From the NCBI GenBank assembly GCA_014730345.1, contig WJIJ01000051.1, positions 3,592-67,591 on the forward strand: a stretch of 64,000 nucleotides of DNA. Reading direction: 5' to 3'. Positions 30,411 through 64,000 of the stretch are shown here, one piece after another. The position numbers and the translations under genes are program-made. Position 1 is the first letter of the stretch; every line of letters begins with the position of its first letter. The DNA comes from Candidatus Zixiibacteriota bacterium. Its GTDB lineage: Bacteria; Zixibacteria; MSB-5A5; UM-FILTER-46-8. The notes below the pieces were generated by a model. That model worked only from the letters and a program-made list of their open reading frames with translations, was not told where the DNA came from and ran no database searches.

Positions 30411-30411
30411 T

Positions 30412-30855: not shown

Positions 30856-30859
30856 AAAA

Positions 30860-31444: not shown

Positions 31445-31472
31445 TTTAAATTTTATAATACAGGGATTAATT

Positions 31473-33059: not shown

Positions 33060-33077
33060 GAAAGGTTAATACTATAA

Positions 33078-34127: not shown

Positions 34128-34696
34128 AAGTGGTAAAGCATTTCAGGATAAACCTTAACAAAGCGGCTAACAGGCTTGATATTTATGAACAGAATAAAAG
34201 GCGTAAATCCGCCATGATGGTTGCCTTTTATGTGATTGTTGTATTCCTCTTAATTGGTATTTCCGGTTATTTTACCTATACCACCCAAAAAGAAATAGAC
34301 CAGAAAAAAGAGATTTTGGCTGGTATTGAAAAGCAGATAGAGGAACTTGAAGCATCGGATACTTACATATCGCGGGATGATGTTTACGGCCTTATTGATC
34401 TCGTTGATATGCGTGTGGATTGGGCGAAGCGTTTGTTGTTACTCGCCAGGAGCCTTCCGAAGGATATCGCCATTACTGAATTGAATTACAGGTCTAATTA
34501 TTTGACTATAAAGGGTATATCCAAGGTTAAAACCCGTCAGAAGGACCTGGACAGGGTAATGGAAATTATAAGGGATATACAATCACGGGAGGAAACCCAG
34601 AACATGTTCGCCGGTTTAAAGTTCCGCTCCTCAAACAGGATTTCTTATAACGATCAGGAAGTATTGGATTTTGAAATTGGTTGTCCGGTTAATTGA
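34100..34696 (+). CDS. pilN: PilN-like bitopic inner-membrane protein
   Basis: Short cytoplasmic N-terminus with an INL motif (HFRINLNK), a single TM (MMVAFYVIVVFLLIGISGYF) and a periplasmic coiled coil. Confidence 0.65.
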   Translation: MRTGIKGGIEVVKHFRINLNKAANRLDIYEQNKRRKSAMMVAFYVIVVFLLIGISGYFTYTTQKEIDQKKEILAGIEKQIEELEASDTYISRDDVYGLIDLVDMRVDWAKRLLLLARSLPKDIAITELNYRSNYLTIKGISKVKTRQKDLDRVMEIIRDIQSREETQNMFAGLKFRSSNRISYNDQEVLDFEIGCPVN

Positions 34697-34712
34697 ATTT
34701 ATCGAGGCTTAA

Positions 34713-35288
34713 ATGAGACGTGATTTACTGATAGTATTGTTGTTCGTGGTATTGCTGGGAGGTTTATGGCTTTATTATTCGCAGGTAATAGCCAAACAGC
34801 CAGAGCTTATCAGCTATTACGACCGGAAAATTGAGGAAAGCAACCAGCGCCTCCTCAGCGCGCAGATACTTTCCAAGAACCTCAGGGGTGTATCCAGCCT
34901 GATAAAAGAAAATATAGCTGAAAGCACCGCTGACTCCCTTGCCCAGGGCGCTTCCCTGGAATTCCTCGAATTCATTAATGATACCGTGGATAAGCTGGGA
35001 ATTAAGTTGGTGAGTTTGAAGCCCATGGAACCGATTAATGAAAATCTTGGGTATATAAGGATTCCTTATAACATAGAGATATTAGCATCATACAATGAGC
35101 TCGGTAAATTCCTTACCCGGCTGGAAAAATCGCCTCGTATAGTGAATATTATTTCGATGAACCTTAATAACAGTCTTGGCGGTGGAATAAGTTCGAGATT
35201 AGAGGCTAAGCCCGATCAACATCATGTACAATTATCAATGGAGTTACTGACACTCCTGCGGAAGGGGACTATAGTTGAGTCAAAGTAA
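34713..35288 (+). CDS. pilO: PilO-like bitopic inner-membrane protein
   Basis: N-terminal TM (LLIVLLFVVLLGGLWLYY), a coiled coil and a C-terminal alpha/beta region. Sits at the position typical of pilO. Confidence 0.6.
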   Translation: MRRDLLIVLLFVVLLGGLWLYYSQVIAKQPELISYYDRKIEESNQRLLSAQILSKNLRGVSSLIKENIAESTADSLAQGASLEFLEFINDTVDKLGIKLVSLKPMEPINENLGYIRIPYNIEILASYNELGKFLTRLEKSPRIVNIISMNLNNSLGGGISSRLEAKPDQHHVQLSMELLTLLRKGTIVESK

Positions 35289-35865
35289 TTCATATAAAAA
35301 CCTCATATTACTGCTGGGAACGGTTACCTTGATTTTTGCCGGATTTCTGGCGGTGAGAGCGTTCCTGATTAATTATGATGATACGAACAATTCGGGCGCT
35401 GCCCGTCTTAATGCTGGTATCGATTCGACGATTATCAACACCATAGATGAACTGGAAAAACGCTTTGAGGAAAAACAGGATCTGGTCTTCTATGTGAAGG
35501 CCGACCCGCTCAGGTTGTCGAGAGTTATCCGTGATACAACTCTACCCGAATTCGCGGATAAGTTCAGGGAACGGGAAGAGGAACATCTCATCAGGTTATC
35601 GGCGACTATTATTACATACGATGATGAACCAAAGGCAGTTATAAAATTTAGAGATAAAAGCCATATCGTAAAAGTAGGCGACACGTTGGGAGACAGGTAT
35701 AAGATACTGGAGATAGAACGCAAGAGGGTGAGGCTGTCTGACGGGAATCGCGAGTTTGAGCTGGTTACGGCTCCCGCGAATACATCCGGGGAACCCCCCC
35801 CGTCAACCGATGGTGAGAGATATTCCGCCAGCGAACCTGAAATAACCCCCCCGGCGGAATATTAG
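35275..35865 (+). CDS. pilP: PilP-like protein
   Basis: N-terminal TM/signal anchor, a beta-rich core, and a Pro-rich C-terminus. Located between the pilO-like gene and the secretin gene. Confidence 0.5.
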   Translation: MSQSNSYKNLILLLGTVTLIFAGFLAVRAFLINYDDTNNSGAARLNAGIDSTIINTIDELEKRFEEKQDLVFYVKADPLRLSRVIRDTTLPEFADKFREREEEHLIRLSATIITYDDEPKAVIKFRDKSHIVKVGDTLGDRYKILEIERKRVRLSDGNREFELVTAPANTSGEPPPSTDGERYSASEPEITPPAEY

Positions 35866-35906
35866 GATTTGCGAAAACGTTTAATAATTGAAATAAGGAG
35901 TTAAGC

Positions 35907-37448
35907 TTGCTGCGACTGTGCGGAAACTTTAGAAAAGCCATTATTGCGCTTTGCTTAATAGCAATTCCGGGCGTACTGTTGTCGACCCCGAATATTCTCA
36001 GTGCCCAGGAACTTCCATTTAATAATGAACCACAGGATAGTGTTAATATCCAAAGATTACAAGCCTTGGTATCGGTAGACGCTGATGATGCTTTTCTGCC
36101 AAGTATTCTCTCGATACTGGCCGATAAAAGCGGATTTAATATCGTAACCGGCCCCGGAGTGAATAAAAAGCAGAGGATATCAGTACATCTCAAGGAAACC
36201 CCAATCGAGGAAGCTATTAATCTCGTTGTAAGAGCCGCGGGGCTTTCCTATGAAATTATCGGCCGGTCATTTCTCGTTGCCGAATCGGAAGCCCTCGAAA
36301 AGGAAATTGGTTTATCGGCTTATGTGTATAACTTGCAGTATGCCAACGCGGCCGAAACTAAAGAACTACTGACCGATATAAGCGAAAACGTCCAAATCGA
36401 CGCCGCGGGCAATCGATTGCTGGTTCTCGCTTCCCCAAAGGTCAACAGCGAGATAAAAGATATTATTGCCCAGATAGACCGGCCCGCCCAACAGATACTT
36501 ATTGAAGCGCGCCTTGTTGAAGTTGCCACTTCCGACCTTATGGAATTAGGTATTGACTGGGAGAGCCTTTCCCGTACTGAAACGGTAATAGCTGAAAACG
36601 CCACCAACTATGATGGAACCGGCAGACCGCCCGGTCATATCTGGCCTTATGTCGATAGGCTCGGGCAAAATGAAGAACTTGGCCCCGATGATCCCGCGGA
36701 GGTTTTTGAAGCGTTCGATGACGATGACAAATTCTTCCATTTCAGCAGAAGGCTATTGGCGTTTGACCTTGCCCTTGACCTTCTTATCAAAAATGACAAC
36801 GCGCGGGTGCTGGCAAACTCCAAGATTACGACTTTGAATAATAGGGAAGCGCAAATCCTTATCGGAGAGGTCATACCCTTCTCCCCGCCGAATACAGTGG
36901 TCTCCGGGGGACTGTCTCTTGGACAGCAGATTGTTGAGAGAGATTCTATCGGCGTTAAGTTGGGAATAACTCCAACTGTCAATTCCGATGGATATATAAC
37001 GGTCCGGGTTAATCCCGAAGTCAGTTCGATTATAGAGCTTGTACAGGGCTACCTTCCCAGGAAGAAAATCCGTACCGCGAGTACCACTGTTATGGTCAAA
37101 GATAATCAGAAGATATTTATCGGCGGCTTACTCTCGGTTGACAATTCGGATATTATTCATAAATTCCCGATTCTCGGTGACATTCCCATACTTGGAAATC
37201 TTTTTAAACATAAAAGTTCCACAGCGAGGAAAACGGATTTATTGATAGAAATAACCCCGAGGATAATTTCTCCCACAAAACTGGCAGAAGATGAAGGTTA
37301 CCTTGGGAAAATAAAGGTCTTTGATGAAGGCCAGATGATGGACCTGGAATCGATTAATCCGGGGATACGCGCTGAAAACGACCCGGAGTATTCATACGCG
37401 AAGTTATTGGAATTGCAGGAAAAATTTACGACCCCTAAAGAAAAATAA
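35907..37448 (+). CDS. pilQ: Type IV pilus secretin
   Basis: Signal peptide. Secretin C-domain motifs (VMVKDNQKIFIGGLLS; IPILGDIPILGNLFKHK). Length 513 aa. Confidence 0.88.
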   Translation: MLRLCGNFRKAIIALCLIAIPGVLLSTPNILSAQELPFNNEPQDSVNIQRLQALVSVDADDAFLPSILSILADKSGFNIVTGPGVNKKQRISVHLKETPIEEAINLVVRAAGLSYEIIGRSFLVAESEALEKEIGLSAYVYNLQYANAAETKELLTDISENVQIDAAGNRLLVLASPKVNSEIKDIIAQIDRPAQQILIEARLVEVATSDLMELGIDWESLSRTETVIAENATNYDGTGRPPGHIWPYVDRLGQNEELGPDDPAEVFEAFDDDDKFFHFSRRLLAFDLALDLLIKNDNARVLANSKITTLNNREAQILIGEVIPFSPPNTVVSGGLSLGQQIVERDSIGVKLGITPTVNSDGYITVRVNPEVSSIIELVQGYLPRKKIRTASTTVMVKDNQKIFIGGLLSVDNSDIIHKFPILGDIPILGNLFKHKSSTARKTDLLIEITPRIISPTKLAEDEGYLGKIKVFDEGQMMDLESINPGIRAENDPEYSYAKLLELQEKFTTPKEK

Positions 37449-37470
37449 TACCTATTCAGGAGGTTTTCAA

Positions 37471-39873
37471 ATGTTAACTAAAAGAACAAAAAGTTTCTAT
37501 GTAACGGGGGTTTTGTTGTTATTATGCCTGAGTTTTATATTTTACACCGCCTGTGATAATAGAAACCCATCAGACGCTGAAATTTCGGAATTGGTTGCGT
37601 TTCTTTCTCTTGATGCCAAACCGGAAGTAATCGCCGCCGATGATGGAGCGACCAAATGTACTTTGACTGTAACAGTTATTGATGAATTTTCCAATGCGGT
37701 GGAAGGCGCCACGGTCCGTCTCAGGGTCGCCAATAATATCGGGAGCATTAGCCCGATTGGCGATTCCTTGACCAATAATGAAGGAAGATACCTGGCGATC
37801 TTTTCGGATATAGGAACAGCCGGAACGGCAAATATTATCGCGACCTCAAGCGGTACTGCCGACTCCCAAACCGTCCAGATCAAAGAAGTTAATAATTCTC
37901 TTGCCCTCGGCTTTACAGATGATTCGACCCTGTTCGCCACCCGCAACGACTCATTGAAAATCGGGGCTACATTAATAGGTACTCTCGGATCAGCATTAAA
38001 AGATAAGGAAATCAATTTCACTACAACAAAGGGTACCATTACCGCTATTGATTCTACCGATGCTTCCGGGCAGGCTGTTGCTTACCTTTACGGTTCTTTC
38101 GGTAATACCGGAACCGCTGTTGTAACCGCGGAATACTCGCGTCCCGGTTTTAAAGAATATGCCGTTGATACAATTAACGTTAGCATGCTTCCTATTCAAG
38201 ATGTTGATAATATCGCTATGAGTATCTTCGGAGATGATTTGCAGACTGGCGATGGAGATGACAGCTTGAGGGTAAGGGCTTCAGTTACTGACAGCACCGG
38301 GCTTCCGGTTGTAGATGGTACCCGGATCCTGTTCAGCGTAAGAGACGGTTCTAACCCTTACCAGGGCGAAATAAGTCCGGTTGATTCGGGAATGACCGCG
38401 AATGGCATCGCCGAAGCCTATTTAAAGAACACTACTTCTACATCTGACAGTATTATTGTCAGGGCATATCATGTTACCGCTGAAGGAGAGGTCTTCGATG
38501 AGGATACAGTCAGTATTCTTCCCGGTGAACCGGCATTAATTACCCTTACCGCTGATCCTGATTCGCTTACCGTTGGTTCCGGGCATACCGCTATACTGCA
38601 GGCGACTGTTAAAGATGCTTACGACAACCTTGTACGCAGTGGTTACCAGATCGAGTTTGACAATTCCTTGACATCCAGCAGTGTCGTTGGATTAAGCAAT
38701 ACGGTAAATGGAATTGCCACTTCATTGTATACCGTTGGCGAAACCGCCGGAGTCGATACCATAACCGCTTCATATGTAATTGACCCCGAAAACACCATAA
38801 CCGGTACTGCCAATACCTGGTGTTTGTCCTCCAGCGGCAACCAGATTTCCCTTCTGGCTCAACCGCCGACAGTAACCGTACGCGGAGCGGGCGGCGTTGA
38901 GTCATCGGTGATTTCGGCATCGGTGAAGGACAACAACCAGAATCCCGCCGCTGATTCAACAAGGGTAGTATTTAAGATTATCGCGGCTCCCCAATCCGAT
39001 TCTATCAACGGCAGGGCATACCTGGATACTCTCGCCAAGTTCGAGGACACCAGTTACACTGCCAATGGCGAGGCGAGAACCACGCTGGTTTCCGGTGACC
39101 GCCCGGGTACTATTTCGATCAGGGCCGCCCTCGAGTCCGGCGTTTCCACGGCACAGCCGCTGGTAACCGTACAATCGGGACCACCTGCTCATATTAACGT
39201 TGGTTTAGGAGCCACCGAACTTACCAACGCCATCTATGAATGGGAATTATCAGCTACGGTTACCGATTTATACTCAAACCCGGTCATACAGAGGACAACT
39301 GTTTACTTTTCGGCCAGGCCTGAAACCGTGCTAAATGTTGGCGGCGACAGCATCTATACCGGCAACCAGTCTAAAAGTGGAAATTCCTATCCCGGAGTTG
39401 CTTTCACCACGGCAACTTACACATGCCAGGCATTAAACGACACTGTTTCCATATTCGCCAGGATCGAAACCGAGAACGGCGATTCGATATACGGTGTTCT
39501 TGACAGCGTGGTTATACCTCTGGATCCGGAAAAAACCAGGATTTATCTAAGCGCTTCCGAGCAAAATCTTGTTTTACAGAATACCAGCGATGTGGATTCT
39601 TCAGATATCACCGCGCAGTTGCTTGATGATAACAATTGCCCCATCGCCAATGGCATAATCGACTTTGCCGCAGAGAACGCCGGACATATCGGCCCCCCTC
39701 AATCGGATACTACCGATGATCAGGGCTTCGCCTACGCGGTATTCTGGATTCGCGGTGAAGAGATAATATCACCGGTGCTTCCCAACGAAGTAACGGCGAC
39801 CGTTGTAGCCCGATTAAGAAGCTATCCCGAGGTTGAGGCAACGCTCGATATACATTGTTTGCGCGTCAATTAG
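37471..39873 (+). CDS. Large lipoprotein with tandem bacterial Ig-like (Big/invasin-like) domains
   Basis: Lipobox (FIFYTACDNRN). About 7 repeats of ~90 aa with the pattern TxTVTVxDxxGNPVxGxxVxF. Embedded between pilQ and pilB. Confidence 0.6.
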   Translation: MLTKRTKSFYVTGVLLLLCLSFIFYTACDNRNPSDAEISELVAFLSLDAKPEVIAADDGATKCTLTVTVIDEFSNAVEGATVRLRVANNIGSISPIGDSLTNNEGRYLAIFSDIGTAGTANIIATSSGTADSQTVQIKEVNNSLALGFTDDSTLFATRNDSLKIGATLIGTLGSALKDKEINFTTTKGTITAIDSTDASGQAVAYLYGSFGNTGTAVVTAEYSRPGFKEYAVDTINVSMLPIQDVDNIAMSIFGDDLQTGDGDDSLRVRASVTDSTGLPVVDGTRILFSVRDGSNPYQGEISPVDSGMTANGIAEAYLKNTTSTSDSIIVRAYHVTAEGEVFDEDTVSILPGEPALITLTADPDSLTVGSGHTAILQATVKDAYDNLVRSGYQIEFDNSLTSSSVVGLSNTVNGIATSLYTVGETAGVDTITASYVIDPENTITGTANTWCLSSSGNQISLLAQPPTVTVRGAGGVESSVISASVKDNNQNPAADSTRVVFKIIAAPQSDSINGRAYLDTLAKFEDTSYTANGEARTTLVSGDRPGTISIRAALESGVSTAQPLVTVQSGPPAHINVGLGATELTNAIYEWELSATVTDLYSNPVIQRTTVYFSARPETVLNVGGDSIYTGNQSKSGNSYPGVAFTTATYTCQALNDTVSIFARIETENGDSIYGVLDSVVIPLDPEKTRIYLSASEQNLVLQNTSDVDSSDITAQLLDDNNCPIANGIIDFAAENAGHIGPPQSDTTDDQGFAYAVFWIRGEEIISPVLPNEVTATVVARLRSYPEVEATLDIHCLRVN

Positions 39874-39909
39874 TTTTAGACCGACTAAGAATAGGAGAAA
39901 ATTGACAAT

Positions 39910-41613
39910 ATGGAATTCCTGGGTACGATACTGCTTAAAGAAGGACTGGTTAAACAGGAACAATTGGATGATGCTTTAGCGAGACAGAAAGGATTAGGTA
40001 AAAGACTCGGAGAAATTCTTATCTCCGATGGTTTAATAACCCAGGAAAATCTCGTCGATGCTCTTTCTATTCAACTCGGAATAGAGAAGGTTGGAGAAGA
40101 GGATCTTGCCCGGATAGCCCGGGAAGTTGTCGAAGTTATCCCCGAATTTTTCGCCAGGGAATATCATGTAATTGCCATCGAACGCGACGAGGACACTTTA
40201 AAAGTGGCCATGACCGATCCCGAAGATATCGTCGTGCTCGATAATCTCCATAAAATGACCAGCTACCGGATAGTGCCGGTCCTTGGTCCTCAGTTCCATA
40301 TCGATGATTCTATCGAAAGGCATTACCGGGAAATACGGGCAACCGGCGAGGTTACCGAGGCTTTATCCGGCCTTGATTTCGTGGTTACCAGCGATGACCA
40401 GGAACTCGATGATGTCGATATCAACCAGCTTAAAAAAGAAATCGACGATGCTCCTATCGTAAAGCTGGTTAACCTGACTATCACCGAGGCGATCAAGAGC
40501 AGGGCGACTGATATACATATCGAACCCACTTTTGATTCACTCGTCATCCGCTACCGTATCGACGGCCATTTACAGGAGGTTATGACCGCTCCCCGTAAAT
40601 CCCAGATGGGAATCATCTCCCGCATTAAGATTATGGCTAATCTTAATATCGCCGAAAGAAGGCTTCCCCAGGACGGCCGTATTACCATAAAAATGCCGGA
40701 GAAAGAGGTCGATGTCCGCGTTTCCATTCTCCCCACGGTGAGGGGAGAAAAAGTGGTTATGAGGTTGCTGGAAAAAACCGGCTTTTCCTATTACCTTGAC
40801 AATCTCGGTTTCGATTCGGACATGCACGATATCTTTTTGAAATGGATTAAACAGCCTTACGGCATGGTAATCGTATCCGGCCCTACCGGTTCTGGTAAAT
40901 CAACCACGCTTCACGCGGCGCTGAATGAAATTAAATCCGAGGAGGATAATATAGTAACTGTAGAGGATCCGGTGGAGTATCAGATTGATGGCGTTGCCCA
41001 GGTTGCCACCGCCGATAAAATCGGTTTGACTTTCGGTTCGGCCCTGCGCCATATTCTACGCCAGGACCCGGATAAGATTCTCATCGGTGAGATACGCGAT
41101 AAAGAAACGGCGGATATCGCCGTGAAATTCGCTTTAACCGGTCACCTTGTTTTCACGACATTGCACGCTAACGATGCCCCATCGACCATTACCCGCCTTC
41201 TGGATATCGGCGTAGCGCCCTTTTTAGTCGGGTCATGCCTTAACCTGGTTATGGCCCAGCGGCTGGTCAGGACTATTTGCCCGCATTGCAAGGAAAGCTA
41301 TACTCCCACCCAAGAGGAATTGGATTCCCTCAAGGTGGATATTTCTAAGTATAATGGGCATAACTTCGTCAGGGCTAAAGGCTGCGTTCACTGCCGTAAC
41401 ACGGGTTACTATGGCCGGACAGGCATTTTCGAGATGCTCGAGTTGCGCCATCCGATCCGAAAACTTATATTCGAGGGAGCTGATCAGGATGCAATCAAAG
41501 ATAGGGCGATGGAATTGAATATGGTCAACCTTCGTGAAGCCGGCGCGCGCAAAGCTTTTCAGGGCAAGACAAGCATTGAAGAAGTATTAAGATCAACTAT
41601 AGAAGAGGATTAA
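39910..41613 (+). CDS. pilB: Type IV pilus assembly (extension) ATPase, GspE/PilB family
   Basis: N-terminal T2SSE_N-like domain. Walker A (GPTGSGKSTTL). Tetracysteine motif (CPHCK...CVHC). Length 567 aa. Confidence 0.93.
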   Translation: MEFLGTILLKEGLVKQEQLDDALARQKGLGKRLGEILISDGLITQENLVDALSIQLGIEKVGEEDLARIAREVVEVIPEFFAREYHVIAIERDEDTLKVAMTDPEDIVVLDNLHKMTSYRIVPVLGPQFHIDDSIERHYREIRATGEVTEALSGLDFVVTSDDQELDDVDINQLKKEIDDAPIVKLVNLTITEAIKSRATDIHIEPTFDSLVIRYRIDGHLQEVMTAPRKSQMGIISRIKIMANLNIAERRLPQDGRITIKMPEKEVDVRVSILPTVRGEKVVMRLLEKTGFSYYLDNLGFDSDMHDIFLKWIKQPYGMVIVSGPTGSGKSTTLHAALNEIKSEEDNIVTVEDPVEYQIDGVAQVATADKIGLTFGSALRHILRQDPDKILIGEIRDKETADIAVKFALTGHLVFTTLHANDAPSTITRLLDIGVAPFLVGSCLNLVMAQRLVRTICPHCKESYTPTQEELDSLKVDISKYNGHNFVRAKGCVHCRNTGYYGRTGIFEMLELRHPIRKLIFEGADQDAIKDRAMELNMVNLREAGARKAFQGKTSIEEVLRSTIEED

Positions 41614-41629
41614 TAGATAAGGAACGATT

Positions 41630-42883
41630 ATGCCGAGTTTTTCTTACATAGTCAAAGATAAGAACGGCACTCAACAGGACGGTATAATCCAGGCGGCCAG
41701 CCTGGACGCGGCTTTGAACAAACTTCGTGAAAAGGGCAATACAATAATATCCGTAAAGGATTACAAGGATGCTTCCGCCGTTGAGCAGGAAAGCCTGTTA
41801 GATAAGATAGGTTTGCTGATTTTTAAAATCCGCACCCATGTTCCTTTGAAAGTAATCGTGTTCTTTACCAGGCAATTAGCTACGATGTTCTCCGCAGGTT
41901 TAAATATCGAAAAAACTATTTCCCAACTGTTGATTGAAGAATCCAACAAGAAATTCAAGAAGGTTCTCGGACAATTAAACGCGGATATTAAAAAGGGATT
42001 ATCTCTTTCGGATGCCATGGAACGGCACCCCGGGGTTTTTTCTCCGCTGTACATCGCCCTGGTGAAATCCGGCGAGGTCTCCGGTACCTTGCACAGGGTG
42101 CTCGAGGAACTGGCAAACTACCTCGAATTCATCCAGGATACCCGCCGTAAAGTGATATCCGCGATGTACTATCCGGCCTTTGTTTTATTAATAACTTTCC
42201 TGATTGTCGCTGGTTTGATAATCTATGTTGTGCCTATATTCCAGGAAGTATACGCGCGGTTCAAAGCTGACTTGCCGCTTCCTACACAAATACTCATTCA
42301 TATAAGCGACACGGTGAGGAGCAATTTCATAGTAAGCGCGCTGATTGTGGCGGCATTCGTTGGTCTTATTGTGGTGATAAACCTTACATATACCGGCAGG
42401 CTGATATTTGACCGGGTCCGGCTTAAAGTACCGATTATAGGACAGCTCCAAATGAACTCCCTGATGAGCAAATTCTCCCGTACTTTCGGTATGCTTATGG
42501 GCGCGGGCGTGCCGGTGATTGACGCTATGAAACTTGTTTCGAGGGTAGTTGATAACTATGTAATTAAAATCGGGGTAAAAAATACGATCCGTTATATTAA
42601 GGACGGATACAGTATTTCGGCATCGATGAAGAAAAGCGCTGTATATCCGCCTACTCTGGTGTCCCTGGCTTCGACCGGCGAGGAAACCGGTGAAATAGAA
42701 AATATGTTCGCCAAAGCGGCCATTTTTTACGATAAACAGGTTGACGCGGTGGTCAGCAGGTTAACCTCGTTAATCGAACCGATGTTGATTGTTATTATCG
42801 CGACCGTAATCGGAACCATAATTATTGTGCTCTATTTGCCCGTATTCTACCTCGGAATGGTTATGAAGCGGGGTCTTAAGTAA
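41630..42883 (+). CDS. pilC: Type IV pilus platform protein, GspF/PilC family
   Basis: Two T2SF repeats and 3 TM segments. Length 417 aa. Confidence 0.9.
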   Translation: MPSFSYIVKDKNGTQQDGIIQAASLDAALNKLREKGNTIISVKDYKDASAVEQESLLDKIGLLIFKIRTHVPLKVIVFFTRQLATMFSAGLNIEKTISQLLIEESNKKFKKVLGQLNADIKKGLSLSDAMERHPGVFSPLYIALVKSGEVSGTLHRVLEELANYLEFIQDTRRKVISAMYYPAFVLLITFLIVAGLIIYVVPIFQEVYARFKADLPLPTQILIHISDTVRSNFIVSALIVAAFVGLIVVINLTYTGRLIFDRVRLKVPIIGQLQMNSLMSKFSRTFGMLMGAGVPVIDAMKLVSRVVDNYVIKIGVKNTIRYIKDGYSISASMKKSAVYPPTLVSLASTGEETGEIENMFAKAAIFYDKQVDAVVSRLTSLIEPMLIVIIATVIGTIIIVLYLPVFYLGMVMKRGLK

Positions 42884-55679: not shown

Positions 55680-57995
55680 ATGGGTTACCCGGCTCTCATA
55701 GCGTTGTTTTTTTTAGCCGCCGGAATTCTGGGGGCATACTATATCCCCCTCCCGGCGGAAATCCCATTATTCGCCGGCGGGTTATCGATTGTCTTCGGCC
55801 TGGTCTTTTTGTATTTGGGAAAAAGAGCATTGCTTATGGTCTCTACCGCATTGCTTTTGGTGAGTCTTGGGTTTTTCCGAAGTCATCTATTCACCGGGCA
55901 ATTCCCTACTAATCATATCTCCAGCTTCACTTCACTGGATTTCAAGGTTCGTATCTCCGGCGAGGTCATTCTTGACCCCGACATTCGAGATTACTATACC
56001 TACCTGACCCTGAAAGCGGACAGTTTATATTTACAGCAGGGCGCAATACCTGTAAATGGGCGTGTACTGGTTAAAATACGGCCAGCTACATCGCGTTTTC
56101 AATATGGAGATTTAATATCGGTTTATGGATATTTGAATAATCCGCCCCGTTCCGGTAATCCGCTTTTATTCGATTACCGCGGTTACCTCCATCGAAAAGG
56201 CATCGCCGGCTACATGTACACCAAAAACCAGCGCGATATTAAACTGCTGGTTCCCTCCGAAGGATTCGATTTCCTTTCCGGCGTAGTGCTTCCAGCTCGA
56301 AAATACCTGATTGATATTTTTCATCAACTCCCCACACCCGGCAACGGTCACTTGCTTGCTGGATTCCTGCTCGGCGAAAAGAGAGGAGTACCTCCCGATA
56401 TAAGGGAATCTTTTATAGCGTCAGGAACAATGCATCTCCTGGCAGTTTCCGGCAGTAACCTCGCGCTTGTAAGTACGATTTACCTTTTGCTGGTTTATTA
56501 CATACCAGTAAGCAGGCGGTGGAAATTGATCGGCAGTATCCCGTTTATAATCATATTCTGTTTTATGACCAACAATGAACCTTCGGTGGTAAGGGCGGCG
56601 GTGATGCTTCTACTGGGAGTGATAGCCTATATGAGTAGCCGCAGGATTGAGCCAATCAACCTGTTCTGCTCCGCGGCGCTGATTATACTCGCCGTTTATC
56701 CTCTTTGGCTTTTCGAGGTCGGCTTTCAGCTTTCATTCGCGGCTGTTGCCGGGATCGTTTTGTACACCAGGTCGAAGTTTTATAATCCACGTCCCGGCGC
56801 CAATATTTTCATAAAAAGCTGGCGATTGATCATCCACGCCGCCTTCGTCAGCGCGGCGGCGTTTTTATTCACTGCTCCCGTAGTAGCTTATCATTTCAAC
56901 CGGCTCGCCGTTTATTCCATATTAGCTAATATCCCCGCCGCCGGTGCGGTTTTTTTTGTTACCGCCGCCGGAACTTTACTCGCTTTCTTCAATCCCATCG
57001 GAGGGTTTGTAAGGGATATTCTGCTTTGGGTTACCGACCTTTCGGTAACGTTAATGAGGATAATCGCCGATTTCTTCTCATCGATTCCTTATGCGGATCC
57101 TGATGTCCCTTCGCCGGATATTTTGACTATTATAGCCATTTATCTCGCGTTGACATCATTGATGATTATCCGCTGGAATAAGAGAATGAGCGTCTATCTT
57201 CTTATCGGGTTACTTATTGTTTTGAATGTAAAAGCATGGGCTGAAGTGCCTTATTTTGGTGATGATGATTACCATGTCGAGTTTTTGGATACCGGTTTCT
57301 CACATTCTCTGCTGATTCGTCAGGATACCCGCTGGAATACTCTTATTTATCATGGCGATGGCCGCAGTTTTCAATCAGTAGGCAGCTGGGCTTTAAAACC
57401 CTATTTGTTGAAACTGGGTTTTATGAAATTTGATAACCTGATTCTAACACACAATTCCAAAGACGCGTTGTGGGGAATAGATATTTTACTGAAGGAAAAT
57501 CTTGTTGAGAATATCCTTTTACCGCCCGATTCGGGTTTGGTCATGGCTATCAGGAATTATGGATATCATGGCGAAATAAAGGAAATTATTTCCGGCGATT
57601 CTCTGATTTCGCCTTCAGGCGTTAAATACTTCATCTTTAAACCCGATATAAATTTAAGAGAAAAACAAAGCTCCAAATCGAGTTATGCTGTTCAAATTAA
57701 AATTTTGAACAGCAATATTATGTTTACTGCTGATAACGAGATTAAGCTAAGTAACCAGATGCTAAGTGATAACGAAATAATTCAAATTGGCTATGGTTTT
57801 GCTGATAAAAGTAGCGCCGGAAATTCGGATGGTGGTTCATACTTTGTAATATCTGGTCAGCCATTTCTCTACTGGAAGGAAAAATCAGCGGCTTTTGATG
57901 ATTCTGGAGAATGTCGGAGATTTTTTAAAACGAGATACCGCGGCGCTGTTTTATTTGAAATTGATGATAAAGGCGTTCATCCTGTCGAAGGATAA
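55680..57995 (+). CDS. comEC: DNA internalisation-related competence protein ComEC/Rec2
   Basis: DUF4131-like N-terminus. ComEC core (GEKRGVPPDIRESFIASGTMHLLAVSGSNLALV). Polytopic. Degenerate beta-lactamase-like C-terminal domain. Length 771 aa. Confidence 0.88.
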   Translation: MGYPALIALFFLAAGILGAYYIPLPAEIPLFAGGLSIVFGLVFLYLGKRALLMVSTALLLVSLGFFRSHLFTGQFPTNHISSFTSLDFKVRISGEVILDPDIRDYYTYLTLKADSLYLQQGAIPVNGRVLVKIRPATSRFQYGDLISVYGYLNNPPRSGNPLLFDYRGYLHRKGIAGYMYTKNQRDIKLLVPSEGFDFLSGVVLPARKYLIDIFHQLPTPGNGHLLAGFLLGEKRGVPPDIRESFIASGTMHLLAVSGSNLALVSTIYLLLVYYIPVSRRWKLIGSIPFIIIFCFMTNNEPSVVRAAVMLLLGVIAYMSSRRIEPINLFCSAALIILAVYPLWLFEVGFQLSFAAVAGIVLYTRSKFYNPRPGANIFIKSWRLIIHAAFVSAAAFLFTAPVVAYHFNRLAVYSILANIPAAGAVFFVTAAGTLLAFFNPIGGFVRDILLWVTDLSVTLMRIIADFFSSIPYADPDVPSPDILTIIAIYLALTSLMIIRWNKRMSVYLLIGLLIVLNVKAWAEVPYFGDDDYHVEFLDTGFSHSLLIRQDTRWNTLIYHGDGRSFQSVGSWALKPYLLKLGFMKFDNLILTHNSKDALWGIDILLKENLVENILLPPDSGLVMAIRNYGYHGEIKEIISGDSLISPSGVKYFIFKPDINLREKQSSKSSYAVQIKILNSNIMFTADNEIKLSNQMLSDNEIIQIGYGFADKSSAGNSDGGSYFVISGQPFLYWKEKSAAFDDSGECRRFFKTRYRGAVLFEIDDKGVHPVEG

Positions 57996-57997
57996 AA

Positions 57998-59194
57998 ATG
58001 CTGGATACAAAAGATAAAAGCGATAAAGGTTTTAAGGGGAATCTGGATACGGTTTCCCTCCTCGATGTTTTCCAACTCCTTTTCAGCGGTAAAAAATCCG
58101 GTATGCTCGAGCTTACTGATGGGGACTCCAGTAAAAAAGTATACCTCAAAACTGGGATGATAGTCGGCGCGGAATCCTCAGAGAACGAAGATATGCTCGG
58201 AACTCTTCTGCTAAAAAGAGGCAAGATCAAAAAGATGGACCTGAATCGCGCGCTCTCCCTGCATAAAAGTTCCGGAAAAATGCTCGGACAGGTTTTAATA
58301 GAAATGGGGCTCTTCTCGGATGCTGAGATTTGCAGTTGCCTTAAAATGCAGGTTGAGGAAATCATTTATAGCCTGTTTGGATGGAGCGCCGGTGAGTTTA
58401 TCTTCCATGAAGGCAAATCGCCGAATAAATCCAACTATGAAATCGCCCTCAATCCCATGAATGTTATCATGGAAGCTACCCGCCGGATGGATGAATGGAA
58501 CGAGATGAAAGAAAACCTCCCGCCGGAAAACTATATTCTCTATGGCGCGGTACCCGAAAGAATAGATGACGAGGAAATACGCTTGAGCAGGGAGGAGTTT
58601 GGGGTGCTCACGCTGATCGATAGTAAACGTTCATTCAAGCAGGTATTGGTAGACAGCCCCAGCGACAGATTTTCCACTTCTAAAGCTATCCATCGGTTTA
58701 TTTCCCTTGGTTTGATAGACGCCTACAAGCCTGAAGGAGCTAACGAAGGCGGGGATGTAGGCCTTGAAGCCGTTCTCCGAGATTTCCTGAAATTCCATCG
58801 CGATATTTATGATATAGTTTTTCTGGTTTTTACCGATTATATGGGTGAAGAGGGTATAAACATCCTGGAAAGGATTTTCAAGATTTGTAAAACGGATCAC
58901 CAGGTACTGGATCGTTTTTCCGGTTCCGGGGGGAAAAATGTGAATTATGATAAAATGGTTGCCGAAGCCCTTACCTTGCCGGAAAATGCTATTATTCACA
59001 AGGTAGCTAACTCCTTTTCGGCCCTCTCCCAAAGATATTTAAGCGCCGTAAGGGAATACCTGGGCGCGAATGTATTCTCGCAAATTATGGGAAAATTGAG
59101 AAAAGCGAATACAAGATATGTCGAAAGCAGAAGGCAGTCATTGATTAATTATGGTATAGAAGACGATGTTTTTCATCTACTGTATTTAAAATAG
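57998..59194 (+). CDS. DUF4388-domain protein (PATAN-associated N-terminal domain), probable motility/polarity regulator partner
   Basis: N-terminus (GNLDTVSLLDVFQLLFSGKKSGMLELTDGDSSKKVYLKTGMIVGAES) matches the DUF4388 pattern. 3-nt spacing from comEC. Confidence 0.6.
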   Translation: MLDTKDKSDKGFKGNLDTVSLLDVFQLLFSGKKSGMLELTDGDSSKKVYLKTGMIVGAESSENEDMLGTLLLKRGKIKKMDLNRALSLHKSSGKMLGQVLIEMGLFSDAEICSCLKMQVEEIIYSLFGWSAGEFIFHEGKSPNKSNYEIALNPMNVIMEATRRMDEWNEMKENLPPENYILYGAVPERIDDEEIRLSREEFGVLTLIDSKRSFKQVLVDSPSDRFSTSKAIHRFISLGLIDAYKPEGANEGGDVGLEAVLRDFLKFHRDIYDIVFLVFTDYMGEEGINILERIFKICKTDHQVLDRFSGSGGKNVNYDKMVAEALTLPENAIIHKVANSFSALSQRYLSAVREYLGANVFSQIMGKLRKANTRYVESRRQSLINYGIEDDVFHLLYLK

Positions 59195-59205: not shown

Positions 59206-59598
59206 ATGAACTGTAAGAAAAAAACAATCTTCTTAATTACAGCTTTACTTTTCAGCGTCTTGCTGGAATTCAATAACGCGTATGCCCAGTTCGGTAATTC
59301 GCCGAATGCGATTAGTTATATTGACCTTGCCATTAGAACTGTTTGGTTGATCTGCTCGGTTCTTGGATTTTTAACCGCTTTTCGCATAAGCAGGGCTTTC
59401 AGAAAGGGAAGGCTTGCGTTGCCCTGGATATTGTTTTCCTCGGCCTTCGCGGTTTTCGCTGTTTCCTCTATAATCTCTTTCGCCGAACTTTTTAAATTTT
59501 TAAATGGTTGGACTACCATCTCCAACGGCGGTTTCGCCGCCGGGGTTTTAGTTTTAATAGTTGCTGGATATCTATATAAAAAGGCCGTTATTCGTTAA
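59206..59598 (+). CDS. Small hypothetical membrane protein (signal peptide plus 3 TM)
   Basis: A 130-aa hydrophobic ORF in operon context. Confidence 0.45.
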   Translation: MNCKKKTIFLITALLFSVLLEFNNAYAQFGNSPNAISYIDLAIRTVWLICSVLGFLTAFRISRAFRKGRLALPWILFSSAFAVFAVSSIISFAELFKFLNGWTTISNGGFAAGVLVLIVAGYLYKKAVIR

Positions 59599-59607
59599 AA
59601 TTTTAAT

Positions 59608-60483
59608 ATGCCTGCTCCAGACACAGATTTAAATGATAGAATCGAGAAATGTCTTGCGATACTGAAGAAGGACCCGGATTCCCAGATATTCGCATCCCTC
59701 GCCGAATGCTATCGAAAAAAAGGCGATCTCGATAAAGCCTATGAAATCGGTCTTAATGGTATTCAACGCCATTTCGAGTATGGCACCGGCCATTTGGTAA
59801 TGGCCAAAATAAATCTCGATAAAAAAGACTATCGCTTAGCGCAGGAAGAATTGAACCTTGCGGAACGTTACATGGGGCGTACCCGCTCGATTGATTATCT
59901 CCAATGCGAGATCCTCCTGAGGGGAGGCGAATTAAAAAAGGGTGAGATACTTCTTTCACAGTTGAAAATTACAGAGCCGCAGAACCCGGCCATAAGATTC
60001 CTTACAGGATTACTAAATAAAGCAAGGGAACAGAACAAAAAACGTCCCCATGCCTTTGATTCTACCGACGATTCCGAAGAAAATGAGGTTAACGGCTATG
60101 CCGGAGATGCCGATAATTTAAAGGATGAGAAGATATCGGTGGAATTTATGGTAAAAACCATCGGTTCGTATCAAGGCGTTAATTACGTACTGGCTCTGGA
60201 CTATGACAACAACGTGCTTTCCGCCTATCCGCCGGCTGAAGAGTGTATGGATGATCATCTGCACTTCTGCAGGATAATCAGCCAGGGATTAAATCATTGT
60301 CTTCCTTCGGTTGGATTCGGTAAGATGGGAAGCTGTTTGGTGGAAACCGATAAACGTAAATATTTCCTGAAAGACGCGGGGAGCTTTTATTTGTTGCTTG
60401 ATACCGATGACAATTCAAATTTCGGATTTCTGAGTATGAAACTCGCTGAAATGCTTCCGTATCTGGAAAACAAGGGGCAATGA
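59608..60483 (+). CDS. TPR-repeat protein with a C-terminal roadblock/LC7-like domain
   Basis: N-terminal TPR-like helices (FASLAECYRKKGDLDKAYEIGLNGIQRHFEYGTGHLVMAKINL). C-terminal roadblock-like region (GVNYVLALDYDNNVLSAYP). Confidence 0.55.
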   Translation: MPAPDTDLNDRIEKCLAILKKDPDSQIFASLAECYRKKGDLDKAYEIGLNGIQRHFEYGTGHLVMAKINLDKKDYRLAQEELNLAERYMGRTRSIDYLQCEILLRGGELKKGEILLSQLKITEPQNPAIRFLTGLLNKAREQNKKRPHAFDSTDDSEENEVNGYAGDADNLKDEKISVEFMVKTIGSYQGVNYVLALDYDNNVLSAYPPAEECMDDHLHFCRIISQGLNHCLPSVGFGKMGSCLVETDKRKYFLKDAGSFYLLLDTDDNSNFGFLSMKLAEMLPYLENKGQ

Positions 60484-60484
60484 C

Positions 60485-61378
60485 GTGGAACGAAAAGAGA
60501 TTATAAAGATATCGATTATCGCTTTGGTCCTTGGGGTTCTTACTTCCTTTTTCTATCCCCAGGGCGAAGACTTAAGCATGCCCTGGCCTGTCCTGTTCAA
60601 TTTCATTTTAGAGATGTTTTACTATGCCCTGATTATCTCCATGTTTGATAACAGCACGGGATTTGTGGAGCATCTTGTTTACGCCGGGGGAAGCTTTATA
60701 TTCCGCGTCATCACTTCGCTTGTCTTCGCCGCCGCGATAACTACAGCCCATGGTATTAGTTTCACCGAATCGATCAGACTCGGAATAGTCGGCTACCTGC
60801 CGCAGGTATTTTCGATGATTCTCGTCTCGCCATGGGTACTGCTGTCGTTTCTTAAGGACAGTTACAAGGAGAAAGTCCGGAGTATATCCAAACCTGACGT
60901 GCCTGTTTACGAAAAGAAAGTGCGTAAGCAGATGGAAGAAATTCAGCAGGAAAAAGAAAGAATTTTAGAGCCGGAAAAACCTGTCGAAGGCGATATGTCC
61001 GTCGAGGGCGTACTGGATTACGTATCCGGCGGCAGGGGCGTGGTTGGAAGCATGATATCCTCGCGTGAAGGGCTGTTGCTGGCATACAGGTTCAGGACCC
61101 AGAAAAAAGCGGAGGAATGGGCCGCGCGGCTCGAAAAAATCTTTGTATCCAACGATTCAATGATGCATCATTATGGAGTGGGCATGCTTAAAAATGCCGA
61201 ATTCCTCGCCGGCGATTTTAACATTGGAATTTATGATGTCTCGGGCATAAGGCTGATTGTAATTGTCCAGGCATCAGCGACAGACAATCTAATTAGCATT
61301 CGCATCGCCCGCGCTGTAGAGATGCTTGGCAAGGTAGTTAAATCCAGATATGGGAATGTAATCGCGTCTGAAGTTTGA
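60485..61378 (+). CDS. Polytopic membrane protein with a C-terminal roadblock/LC7 domain
   Basis: Four N-terminal TM helices. C-terminal roadblock-like region (VVGSMISSREGLLLAYRF...IRLIVIVQASATDN). Confidence 0.55.
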   Translation: MERKEIIKISIIALVLGVLTSFFYPQGEDLSMPWPVLFNFILEMFYYALIISMFDNSTGFVEHLVYAGGSFIFRVITSLVFAAAITTAHGISFTESIRLGIVGYLPQVFSMILVSPWVLLSFLKDSYKEKVRSISKPDVPVYEKKVRKQMEEIQQEKERILEPEKPVEGDMSVEGVLDYVSGGRGVVGSMISSREGLLLAYRFRTQKKAEEWAARLEKIFVSNDSMMHHYGVGMLKNAEFLAGDFNIGIYDVSGIRLIVIVQASATDNLISIRIARAVEMLGKVVKSRYGNVIASEV

Positions 61379-61402: not shown

Positions 61403-61762
61403 ATGTATGATGTTCTGGCGGAACTGAATAAAACCTCGGGTATAAAGGGAAGTATGATGGTCGGCGCCGATGGCATTATAATCGCCGCGGACCTCGATAA
61501 TGAACTCGAGGATGATACCGTAGGGGCTCTGGCGGCTTCCATAATCGCCGGTATCAAAAAAGCTGTGAATAGACTTGACCGCGGTCAGCTTAATCATGTT
61601 ATGATTGAAGCGGAGCATGGAAAAGTTTTTCTTAGTGAAAATCAGTTTGGTATACTTGTAGTAATTGCCGACAACGAAGTCAATATCGGATTAATCAGGT
61701 TGGAGATGAGAACCGCTTTAAGCCGAATTCAGAACTCCACCGTAATCACCGGCAAATCTTAA
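61403..61762 (+). CDS. Roadblock/LC7-domain protein (MglB/MglC-like)
   Basis: The 119-aa sequence ([18 protein letters not shown]...[22 protein letters not shown]) fits the roadblock consensus. Confidence 0.8.
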
Positions 61763-61781: not shown

Positions 61782-63731
61782 ATGGTAACAATAAATTACG
61801 CTTTCCGGGAAGTAGTCAGTAAAATCGTATATTACGGTCCGGGGCTTTCGGGCAAAACAACGAATTTGCATTATGTTTTCCGAAAAGTCCCACCCCAGAC
61901 CAGAGGGGAGATGATTTCCCTGGCAACTGAAGCCGACCGGACCCTGTATTTCGATTTCCTCCCCATCAATCTCGGGAGTATCCAGGGGTTCGCCACCAAG
62001 TTCCAATTGTACACTGTTCCCGGGCAGGTTTTCTATAATGCTACCCGGAAACTCGTTTTGAGGGGCGTCGATGGCCTGGTGTTCGTTGCCGATTCCCAAC
62101 TTGCAAAAATGGATGAAAACCTTGAGAGTCTGAATAACCTCAAGGAAAACCTCGTTGAATATGGTATCAATTACGATGAAATACCTCTTATCATCCAGTA
62201 TAACAAGCGCGATCTCCCCAATATCGCTACCATCGAACAGCTTGAAGCCGCCCTTAATCCGGCAGGAGCGCCCTATTTCGAAGCCGTAGCTTCTAAAGGG
62301 GAAGGAGTTTTTGATACACTTAAAGCTATCTGCAAAATCGTTCTCGACAGAGCCCGCAGTGAACACGGTGTTACCGCTACCGAGGAGGTCCCGGTCGGAC
62401 AGATGCAATCCGCCGAAAACCAGGCGCAGGGTTTAACACCATCGAGTCTCGATGACTCCGCCCCGGCATTGCAACCTCCCACTCAAACACTCGATGATGA
62501 TAAAGATGAAAACGAAGATACACTAACTCCCGGTTCACAGCAAACCTCGGCCCCGGAACCTGAACCGGTAAAACCTGTTCAGCAAGAACCTCCGGCACAG
62601 GCGCCTCCTCAGAAAACATCGTCGACACAGGAATCTGCCCCGCAGGAACCCCCGGCGCAGAAAGACCCGAATGTATATGAATTATCTGTAGATGAGCCCG
62701 GTGAACAGTCTCCTGCTCCGGCCGAAGAAGCAAAAGAAACGCCTATTGCCGGGCCATCTGAACCAGAAAAAACTCCCGAAACGCCGCTTGAATCTCAACC
62801 GGAGAAGGAAAAAACCGCGGAAACACCCTTGGCGGCGTCAAGTGAGAACGAAAAATCGTCGCCGTCAAACGACGTTGTTCCGCCAAACACACCTGACACT
62901 GCAGGTTTCCGTCCGGATGTCCATGTACTGGATGATTCTGATTCAGATACCAAACAGCCCGCCGATGATAACGCCCTTGATTCCACAACGGACAACAAGA
63001 TTCACCAGGTCAATATCGGCCTGGATGATTTCCAGACCGATACCATTAAATCCGAAGAAATGAACGCCGCCGAATCCGACCAGACACCGGCGCCGGAAGA
63101 GGAACACACCGAGAAATCGGAGATTGATAATCTTGAAACAGAAGCGGATGCTTCACCAAAGAAGTCCAAGCCATTTATCCCCGGTTTCGATTTTAGCGAG
63201 GAAGATGATAGCCCGCCGGGCGGTGGCTCAATTGGCGAACAAAACACCGCTTTCGAACAGCCGACGGCATCATCAACGCCTAAGGAATCCGAAGTTCCTG
63301 AAGGACCAGAGCAGGATATTACAAATCATCAATTACCACCCGAAAAGCCCGCGGAGGAAGCAATAAACCAGAAACTGCCTCCGGAGCCTCCGGTTTCAGC
63401 AAAACCAGAAGTTCAAAATGATAATCAGCCGCCCGCTTCCGGGTACTCATCGCTTGCCGATGATATCCTCCAGGATGTGGAGCAATCGGCCGATATTTCC
63501 CATGATATTCAATCAAGCGAGGCTGACACGGAAGCAGATGATTTAATCGGGAATACTGAAAAGAGCGTTAAGAAGGACGAAAATATAGATAAAGCGGAAG
63601 AACCAACCGATGAATCCGAACAGGAAGATGGCTACAAACCAAAGATGGATGGCATGAAAAAACGCAAAAAAGAGAAGAAATCCTTGTTTGGATGGTTTAA
63701 GAAATTAGGCCGGTCCAAAGGAGGTGAATAG
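61782..63731 (+). CDS. mglA: MglA-family Ras-like GTPase with a ~450-aa low-complexity Pro/Glu/Ser-rich C-terminal extension ending in a basic amphipathic tail
   Basis: The first ~195 aa are near-collinear with M. xanthus MglA ([16 protein letters not shown]; [10 protein letters not shown]; [10 protein letters not shown]; [11 protein letters not shown]; [10 protein letters not shown]). The remaining ~450 aa have no stop and consist of PEP/Q-rich then D/E-rich low-complexity sequence, ending [24 protein letters not shown]. Confidence 0.85.
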
Positions 63732-63734
63732 AGA

Positions 63735-64000
63735 TGAGCGAGAGTACCGTAATTTATGAGAACGATGTAAAGCAGATAGACAAGCTGATGGCCCGGCTTA
63801 TTTCGGAAGCGGAAGCAAAATGCGCGCTTTTAGTCGATAAGGACGGAAGGCTAATAACCCGCCAGGGATTTACAAATACGCTTGATACTACTGCTCTTGG
63901 GGCGCTACTCGCGGGAAGTTTCGCTTCCACTAAAGAGATAGCCCGCCTTGTTGGCGAACCTGAATTTTCAGTTTTGTTCCATCAGGGCAAAAAGGACCAT
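63735..64000 (+). CDS. mglB: MglB GTPase-activating protein (roadblock domain), 3' truncated by the window edge
   Basis: The first 88 aa match M. xanthus MglB (ALLVDKDGRLITRQGFTNTLDTTALGALLAGSFASTKEIARLVGEPEF). 3-nt spacing after mglA. Confidence 0.85.

Follow-up and report, generated by a model that had tools for sequence, protein, structure and literature searches.

A long-tailed MglA polarity GTPase of Zixibacteria with a conserved, putatively membrane-targeting C-terminal module

In the Myxococcus and Thermus models, the polarity GTPase MglA is a soluble single-domain switch, which reaches the cell poles via partner proteins and travels from pole to pole via the cytosol. The stretch of DNA analysed here, 64,000 nucleotides from a Candidatus Zixiibacteriota bacterium (assembly GCA_014730345.1, contig WJIJ01000051.1, positions 3,592 to 67,591; hereafter the window), encodes an MglA that is much longer. 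Its mglA gene is located at 61782..63731 of the forward strand, and the protein has 649 residues, of which 454 form a tail behind the GTPase (G) domain. This raises the question of what an MglA does with such a tail. The protein can be divided into a G domain, a linker, and a 31-residue terminus. We propose that it is an MglA switch connected by a disordered acidic linker to a C-terminal peripheral membrane anchor, a reading to which we assign a probability of roughly 0.6.

The long reading frame is genuine and the architecture is conserved. Positions 61782-63731 (+) form a single uninterrupted open reading frame (ORF) in the ORF list of the window, with an ATG start and 649 codons plus a stop. 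The encoded protein is identical to GF307_05040, an NCBI "hypothetical protein" from a metagenome-assembled genome (MAG) of candidate division Zixibacteria. The preliminary description of the locus left the continuity of the frame to be confirmed and suggested a search for MglA homologues with C-terminal extensions in related genomes. The frame is open throughout, and all 120 of the best homologues are long (357-505 residues), nearly all of them with the same in-frame module at the end. Their G domains are 73-87% identical, and they belong to Zixibacteria wherever the source carries a name. Together with the 15 best representatives of clusters at 50% identity, they make up the set P0001-P0135 used below. 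The tails in the Zixibacteria set comprise 162-454 residues, with a median of 202, and that of the window protein is the longest. One NCBI record names a Zixibacteria homologue "MglA (modular protein)", which indicates that the annotators saw the extra length without interpreting it.

The unusual length of the protein, with the longest tail in the clade, is all that speaks for an artefact, in which the long ORF would stem from a frameshift, from reading through two genes, or from a chimeric assembly. The close homologues, which come from independent assemblies, are without exception long and nearly all share the in-frame end, and since the terminal module is kept in frame beyond a variable linker, a frameshift or chimera is excluded. 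Furthermore, the nearest homologues (P0002, P0004, and P0005) keep islands of conserved sequence in the linker in the same order as the window protein, and mglB begins three nucleotides past the stop codon of mglA, as it does in relatives. We consider an artefact to be practically ruled out. A tandem-repeat origin of the extra length was also rejected, as Tandem Repeats Finder (TRF) gave nothing at a score of 30 or higher in the tail DNA. The peptide duplications in the tail are limited to two short ones, QEPPAQ and KT.ETPL.

Judged from its sequence, the protein is a true group-1 MglA polarity GTPase. The G domain comprises residues 1-195 (61782..62366, +). In a search of PDB sequences, the best match was M. 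xanthus MglA (E 1.3e-76), the residues 3-193 of which align with residues 3-193 of the window protein without gaps and with 60% identity over 191 positions. The second match was T. thermophilus MglA (E 5.9e-74), and eukaryotic and archaeal Rabs reached E-values of 1e-4 or worse. The G1 P-loop GPGLSGKT (residues 19-26; 61836..61859, +) is invariant in an alignment of 62 homologues (A1). The same is true of D52-R53-T54 in switch 1 (61935..61943, +), which places an intrinsic arginine finger beside the G2 threonine; R53 aligns with R53 of M. xanthus MglA. The G3 motif TVPGQ (residues 78-82; 62013..62027, +) contains the catalytic Gln82, and the G4 motif NKRD is formed by residues 141-144 (62202..62213, +; identified by its motif and in A1). 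All the catalytic residues for GTP hydrolysis are present. The MglA-type GTPase that the preliminary description had recognised from the P-loop, switch threonine, TVPGQ, and NKRD is therefore borne out.

Group 1 is defined by TVPGQ instead of DxxGQ in G3 and by an intrinsic arginine adjoining the G2 threonine (PMC4316618). TVPGQ and R53-T54, like NKRD, are invariant across the 62 aligned homologues. The AlphaFold2 (AF2) model of the full-length protein, calculated with A1 as input, has a Ras-like alpha/beta fold for residues 1-198. Pfam matches of the G domain are weak (Ras, Arf, Gtr1), as is known for some MglA-like GTPases (PMC4316618). Thus, the P-loop, TVPGQ, arginine finger, and coupling to mglB are those of group 1, whereas the size is not: 649 residues stand against a single domain of about 195 residues (150-240 in the reference census). 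The 5' part of mglB, which encodes the GTPase-activating protein (GAP) with a Roadblock fold, is located at 63734..64000 (+), where it is cut by the window end. Its product is 74% identical over 87 residues to a 162-residue protein of locus L001, for which the match to M. xanthus MglB spans the entire length (E 1.6e-36). The adjacent MglB-matching gene, together with the G-domain match, identifies the ORF as the mglA of an mglA-mglB pair.

The G domain is followed by an acidic, proline-rich linker of about 423 residues (residues 196-618; 62367..63635, +), delimited by composition, charge, and the AF2 model. The 454-residue tail as a whole consists of 13% Glu, 13% Pro, 10% Ser, and 10% Asp, and contains a Pro/Gln-rich stretch of 19 residues and a long acidic region. 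Each 40-residue window of the linker carries a negative net charge, and the net charge over residues 196-621 amounts to -74. The full-length AF2 model has no secondary structure after the G domain, and the block-mean values of the predicted local distance difference test (pLDDT) are 35-54 up to approximately residue 620, which is consistent with an intrinsically disordered linker. A long Pro-rich and acidic disordered tail had been described before from the letters alone, and that description stands. Searches of the tail against Pfam and NCBIfam gave no family match. The interior of the linker is conserved neither in sequence, length, nor composition among Zixibacteria orthologues: the content of Pro varies between 5 and 21% and that of Asp and Glu between 5 and 29%, and hardly any of the sequence can be aligned.

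These properties bear on the suggestion, made in the preliminary description, that the tail is a fused polar scaffold resembling RomR, which is composed of a receiver domain and a Pro-rich C-terminal domain and brings MglA to the cell poles (PMC3420945). Under this suggestion, the tail would be equivalent to the Pro-rich, then Glu-rich output region of RomR, and would direct MglA to the pole as RomR does in Myxococcus. The order of a Pro/Gln-rich segment and acidic stretches fits, the functional link to MglA is shared, and no receiver-domain (RomR-like) protein was found among the subset of window ORFs scanned. However, the likeness is solely compositional. The window protein contains no receiver domain (Response_reg) according to Pfam and NCBIfam, and its tail matches no family of either database. 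The linker interior varies widely in length (162-454 residues for the tails) and composition and is almost unalignable, and the linkers of the Planctomycetota proteins described below are barely acidic, with a median Asp+Glu content of 2%. The element that is conserved is the basic terminus, which is without counterpart in the published descriptions of RomR consulted. Judged by composition and conservation, a RomR-type scaffold fusion is very improbable.

Strong conservation in the tail is limited to its end, a basic-aromatic module of 31 residues (residues 619-649; 63636..63728, +), which was delimited by conservation, charge, and a lipid-binding discriminant and represents a putative membrane-targeting sequence. 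The residues P620 and M622 are invariant or nearly so across Zixibacteria, and 97 of the 135 proteins in the set P0001-P0135 have the motif [KR]PxM at most 45 residues from the C-terminus. Behind this motif come K.K.KK, a patch of hydrophobic and aromatic residues with a 10-residue consensus, and more lysines, and the spacing between KPxM and the basic-aromatic part is fixed. The window protein has the patch LFGWF among runs of Lys and Arg. A scan of GTDB, with one genome per species, found matches to the module at 14 loci. At each of the 14, the match forms the C-terminus of an MglA and takes up the final 25-42 codons of an ORF of 368-416 residues. The labels of these loci are mostly Zixibacteria; two carry the submitters' label Ignavibacteria, and several are without a phylum label. 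The scan used the narrow alignment A3, and the pattern PQMAESRK is too strict for mapping the phylogenetic limits of the module.

The physical properties of the module resemble those of membrane-binding peptides. The last 28 residues of the window protein have a net charge of +8, and the last 25 residues of the homologues have a median charge of +8, compared to -2 in the tail interiors. Within the protein, the helical hydrophobic moment peaks at 0.71, in the 11-residue segment 634-644. This segment belongs to a 14-residue amphipathic core (residues 632-645; 63675..63716, +), which was defined by the hydrophobic moment and by AF2 prediction of the isolated end. With a HeliQuest-type discriminant (threshold 1.34), the 18-residue segments that exceed the threshold start at residues 615-632, apart from two at the P-loop, and the best-scoring 18-mer is within the last 40 residues in 118 of 120 homologues. 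The C-terminus of some Zixibacteria MglAs reads KKKRGFFKRLFGK, KKKPGFFKRLFGIK or KKRGFFSRLFGG, which is nearly the membrane-targeting sequence of Escherichia coli MinD (KGFLKRLFGG), known to serve as a portable membrane tag (PMC5471200). The module shares with the targeting sequences of MinD and FtsA the position at the extreme C-terminus, the conservation in orthologues, and the amphipathic periodicity with a basic flank. No transmembrane (TM) helix was found in the Zixibacteria tails (0 of 120 homologues). The putative module is, from these features, most likely a peripheral membrane anchor.

Several observations weigh against this reading. The terminus is a coil, with no helix, in the full-length AF2 model. 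When the last 45 residues are modelled in isolation, a helix is predicted for F636-L642 (pLDDT of about 78), which is only seven residues long and of moderate confidence. Five of the seven core residues are hydrophobic and the core includes a conserved glycine; therefore, its binding could be that of an unstructured basic-aromatic cluster and not that of a classic amphipathic helix. The KPxM half with its invariant proline and methionine exceeds the needs of a generic lipid binder, which hints at a protein partner, and the linker, with its net charge of -74, could mask the +8 terminus. In addition, the link of mglA to the pilus genes pilB, pilT, and pilC, described below, is one of synteny in relatives only, since the window ends inside mglB. 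The basic amphipathic membrane-targeting helix that had been suggested for the C-terminus is thus upheld in its basic and amphipathic parts (net charge +8, moment 0.71), and a helix is predicted for the isolated end but not in the full-length model.

The linker preceding the module contains short islands of conserved sequence, which are candidate linear motifs. The island FRPDVHVL (residues 376-383; 62907..62930, +) aligns with F.PEVTI[MV] in P0002, P0004, and P0005, and by eye appears to be related to TNVVVS, an island of other Zixibacteria. A 20-residue island (residues 407-426; 63000..63059, +) corresponds to IHQVRMGMDDFQTDGIKSEG in P0002 and IDDFSTDGIKTDE in P0005. The third island, KPFIPGFDF (residues 463-471; 63168..63194, +), has the form KPF[IL]PGF[DE] in P0002, P0004, and P0005. 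The weakly conserved NTAFEQ (residues 488-493; 63243..63260, +) has equivalents in these closest homologues only, NTAFEE in P0002 and NTAIE in P0004. Related islands, TNVVVS, EETTE..[VI]LK, and GFDEEAT, are present in the majority of the remaining Zixibacteria. The islands are probably linear docking motifs for partners encoded in the same operon.

The terminal module itself might be such a docking peptide, binding MglB, one of the additional Roadblock proteins, the PATAN protein, or an ATPase of the pilus, or it might fold back onto the G domain for autoregulation, in which case the linker would be a tether for regulation within the molecule or complex. An invariant proline and methionine in KPxM at a fixed spacing are typical of a specific binding motif, the conserved islands indicate that the tail does carry linear motifs, and the full-length AF2 model lacks a terminal helix. 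Moreover, known regulators of MglA work through short helices or linkers, as illustrated by the C-terminal helix of MglB (PMC6785124) and by a motif in the linker of GltJ, which binds MglA-GTP (PMC11135422). However, the charge and aromatic signature of the module is that of known membrane binders, and a shared protein partner is hard to reconcile with the TM helix and the MinD-like end that take its place in Planctomycetota and Fibrobacterota. We regard docking or autoregulation as a less probable explanation of the module, but as the strongest rival of the membrane anchor, and lipid anchoring and protein docking may coexist.

Tailed MglAs are not confined to Zixibacteria. A search with the G domain only, against 1.84 billion representatives at 50% identity, yielded 2,417 matches at E <=1e-30. 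The best 150 of these all have lengths of 276-764 residues and G domains that are 57-80% identical. The score of M. xanthus MglA against the window protein is 262 bits, a value that comes from a different search, which makes the comparison approximate. By this benchmark and by the lengths, the closer relatives among the best 150 are all tailed. The list of representatives favours tailed forms, because divergent tails split clusters, and canonical short MglAs may collapse into a few clusters. The C-termini of the representatives fall into recurring classes, the taxonomy of which, outside Zixibacteria, follows submitters' labels and source names.

In Fibrobacterota (P0142 and 114 relatives, from Chitinispirillaceae, Chitinivibrionales, and Fibrobacter MAGs), 107 of the 115 proteins end in ...MFFTSVDTDRxKKPxKRPVNPR..QQKGFLSKFFNKD. 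The proteins are 436-667 residues long and their tails 241-472 residues, and the terminus KGFLSKFFNKD is MinD-like, with a comparable hydrophobic moment. The Planctomycetota tails (P0224 and 119 relatives) are Pro-rich and nearly uncharged, with a median length of 248 residues and a median Asp+Glu content of 2%, and 113 of the 120 end in a hydrophobic 19-mer of TM strength, which follows R[LI][KR]PR. A basic stretch that contains proline directly before the hydrophobic element is common to Zixibacteria, Fibrobacterota, and Planctomycetota. The sole Planctomycetota locus examined (L018 6001-7362) has a tailed mglA followed by a gene for a 169-residue Roadblock protein. The sole Fibrobacterota locus examined (L019 6001-7572) has a PATAN gene, a tailed mglA, and a gene for a 242-residue Roadblock protein; three flagellin genes adjoin.

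Because a TM helix in Planctomycetota and a MinD-like end in Fibrobacterota stand at the position of the Zixibacteria module, membrane tethering is the best reading of all three. On the simplest reading, the tail ends in an address label, and in the three phyla the address would be the cytoplasmic membrane. The likeness of the MglA termini to MinD is probably convergent. The preliminary description had offered a membrane anchor as the alternative to a polar scaffold, and the conserved end, the top hydrophobic moment, and the MinD-like or TM ends elsewhere give this alternative comparative support. The view of the window protein as a one-off exception to canonical MglA is no longer tenable: the tailed form is the standard form of MglA in Zixibacteria, with similar forms in at least two other phyla, and it appears to be standard in all three.

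The representatives also include other kinds of C-terminus. P0179, a metagenomic representative of 389 residues, combines an MglA G domain and linker with the C-terminal domain of FliN (PF01052, E 5.7e-23), and would be a polarity GTPase joined to a module of the flagellar C-ring. A single representative, P0186, has an MglA with a TPR_20 end. P0158, P0172, P0212, and approximately 30 other representatives end in a beta-like module of about 30 residues, REIVVPVxLxPEDLExGVVLKLxI...RAA, without a Pfam match.

The charge pattern of the window protein allows for a further explanation, in which the acidic linker and basic end drive self-association into a condensate at the poles and the tail is a polarity matrix comparable to the PopZ hub. 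The charges are distributed in blocks (-74 in the linker and +8 at the terminus), disorder is strongly predicted, and tail length is variable and composition-driven, all of which speaks for such a matrix. However, there is no evidence of multivalency beyond the single basic block, and the Planctomycetota proteins combine nearly uncharged linkers with a TM-helix end. A condensate-forming tail is therefore improbable.

In the mechanism that we propose for the membrane anchor, the Lys and Arg runs of the module would bind anionic phospholipids, and the LFGWF patch would insert into the bilayer in the manner of the MinD targeting sequence. Insertion could take place as a short amphipathic helix, as in MinD, or as an unstructured basic-aromatic cluster, as in MARCKS. 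The switch would thus be held at the inner membrane on a flexible leash. Repelled by the membrane, the acidic leash would let the G domain sample a shell of approximately 20 nm, according to our estimate for an expanded random coil of 423 residues, the contour length of which is about 150 nm. This reach would suffice for the cytoplasmic pilus ATPases and for the membrane-bound Roadblock protein encoded two genes upstream. GTP/GDP cycling would be set by MglB from the gene directly downstream, and the linker islands would dock the operon partners. A preference for anionic lipids could, more speculatively, add a polar bias. We infer the membrane binding of the module from its sequence and that of its counterparts; the connection of tailed MglA to pilus polarity and the roles of the linker islands are likewise conjectural.

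The genes surrounding mglA are arranged as in other Zixibacteria. In the window, ComEC (55680-57995) is followed by a PATAN (DUF4388) protein (57998..59194, +; PF14332, E 3.6e-32) with a cyclic di-GMP-binding motif of the MshEN type (NF053729, 44.7 bits against a cutoff of 38), which suggests cyclic di-GMP input into the MglA module. PATAN-domain neighbours have been noted for some members of group-1 MglA (PMC4316618). The next gene encodes a small protein with four hydrophobic segments (59206..59598, +), conserved in position and without a family match. It precedes the gene for a TPR protein (59608..60483, +), identified by weak TPR matches and a conserved position (L001 7825-8751). By eye, the C-terminal half of the TPR protein looks Roadblock-like; counted with MglB and the two Roadblock proteins described next, it would give four Roadblock-type proteins around mglA.

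The following gene (60485..61378, +) encodes a membrane protein of 297 residues with four predicted N-terminal TM helices and a C-terminal Roadblock-like region (Robl_LC7, weak, E 0.0025), and genes for proteins of 303-319 residues are at its position in L001 and L003. A putative membrane-anchored Roadblock protein next to a tethered MglA is reminiscent of the eukaryotic Ragulator-Rag arrangement. Directly upstream of mglA is the gene for a small Roadblock/LC7 protein of 119 residues (61403..61762, +; PF03259, E 1.7e-14), a paralogue of MglB with conserved synteny. Among solved chains, unnamed Roadblock proteins are closest to it, and MglB reaches an E of only about 0.05.

The gene order in two other Zixibacteria genomes is PATAN, small membrane protein, TPR, TM-Roadblock, Roadblock, mglA, mglB, pilB, pilT, pilC, and a pilS-like gene. 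The PilB of these sister genomes has the architecture MshEN+T2SSE, and the gene after pilC encodes a PilS-like kinase. The presence of pilB-pilT-pilC behind mglB in the two genomes suggests control of type IV pilus polarity by the tailed MglA. The window itself contains a complete type IV pilus cluster at 29337-42883 (+), with a PilT-like ATPase, pilin, PilM, PilO, PilQ, PilB-like ATPase, and PilC. The pilin has an N-methylation motif, PilQ is a secretin, the PilB-like ATPase has an MshEN domain, and the cluster includes an 800-residue Big_1/invasin-like protein. Elsewhere in the window, at 6662-7897 (-), there is a gene for an LVIVD-repeat protein with a C-terminal sorting domain of type IX secretion (Por_Secre_tail), which fits an organism of the FCB group.

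The tailed and anchored architecture of MglA seems not to have been described before. We found no paper on a tailed or membrane-anchored MglA, and a literature search for MglA in Zixibacteria, Planctomycetes, or Fibrobacteres gave nothing beyond phylum listing. The reference census of prokaryotic small GTPases used limits of 150-240 residues, and 39 of 488 sequences of the MglA subclade were dropped as longer (PMC4316618); the tailed MglAs fell outside this census because of the 240-residue cut-off.

If MglA is self-tethered, whether permanently or reversibly, its search for the pole would take place in two dimensions, and with a TM-helix anchor there would be no free cytosolic pool of MglA. 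Anionic lipids enriched at the poles could give tethered MglA an intrinsic bias. More tentatively, since we consider it a possibility rather than the likelier case, membrane-tethered MglA may be an old and widespread bacterial design, in which a disordered, hypervariable leash connects the G domain to a C-terminal address label that can be exchanged. Zixibacteria and Fibrobacterota would use a basic-aromatic peptide as the label, Planctomycetota a TM helix, and other lineages a FliN domain or TPR. In that case, bacteria would have reached, independently or ancestrally, the logic of a hypervariable region plus membrane anchor that is used by eukaryotic GTPases of the Ras superfamily. Polarity control outside Myxococcus would then rely on two-dimensional diffusion and on activation that is local to the membrane, in place of pole switching through the cytosol, and MglA would, by means of its linker islands, serve as a scaffold in its own right to which pilus or Roadblock partners are recruited. 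The 31-residue module is, in addition, a compact candidate membrane tag.

The closest of the known systems is group-1 MglA itself, as represented by M. xanthus MXAN_1925 and the T. thermophilus protein (Wuichet and Sogaard-Andersen 2015, PMC4316618). The window protein shares with them a colinear G domain, the arginine finger, TVPGQ, NKRD, and an adjacent mglB, and an association with type IV pilus genes is common to both. The characterised MglAs are soluble single domains of 195-197 residues, to which the window protein adds a tail of 454 residues with a basic-aromatic end.

MinD, a P-loop NTPase like MglA, also ends in a short segment that is basic and hydrophobic, and FtsA and MreB have similar amphipathic anchors. 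The targeting sequence of MinD is placed directly behind the ATPase domain, and its membrane binding needs ATP-driven dimerisation. In Zixibacteria MglA, by contrast, a linker of 160-450 residues precedes the terminus, and the polybasic KPxM...K.K.KK is located ahead of the core. The effector domain of MARCKS, in which Lys-rich runs with Phe or Trp bind acidic membranes without a stable helix, would fit the coil predicted for the terminus of the full-length protein; MARCKS is eukaryotic and unrelated, and the likeness is an analogy only.

An analogy can also be drawn to the eukaryotic Ras, Rho, and Rab GTPases, such as K-Ras4B, which share the design of a G domain followed by a variable unstructured region and a polybasic end. 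Compared to these, the linker of the window protein is 10-20 times longer and acidic, and its putative anchor is peptide-based. The only cysteine of the window MglA is C184 and the protein ends in ...SKGGE, without a CAAX, CC, or CXC motif; therefore, it is not prenylated. According to a structural study of Asgard GTPases from 2024, Rabs probably acquired their C-terminal membrane-insertion extension during eukaryogenesis (PMC10933270). The tailed MglAs bear on the evolution of the Ras superfamily in that a putative peptide-based equivalent of this extension would already be present in bacteria.

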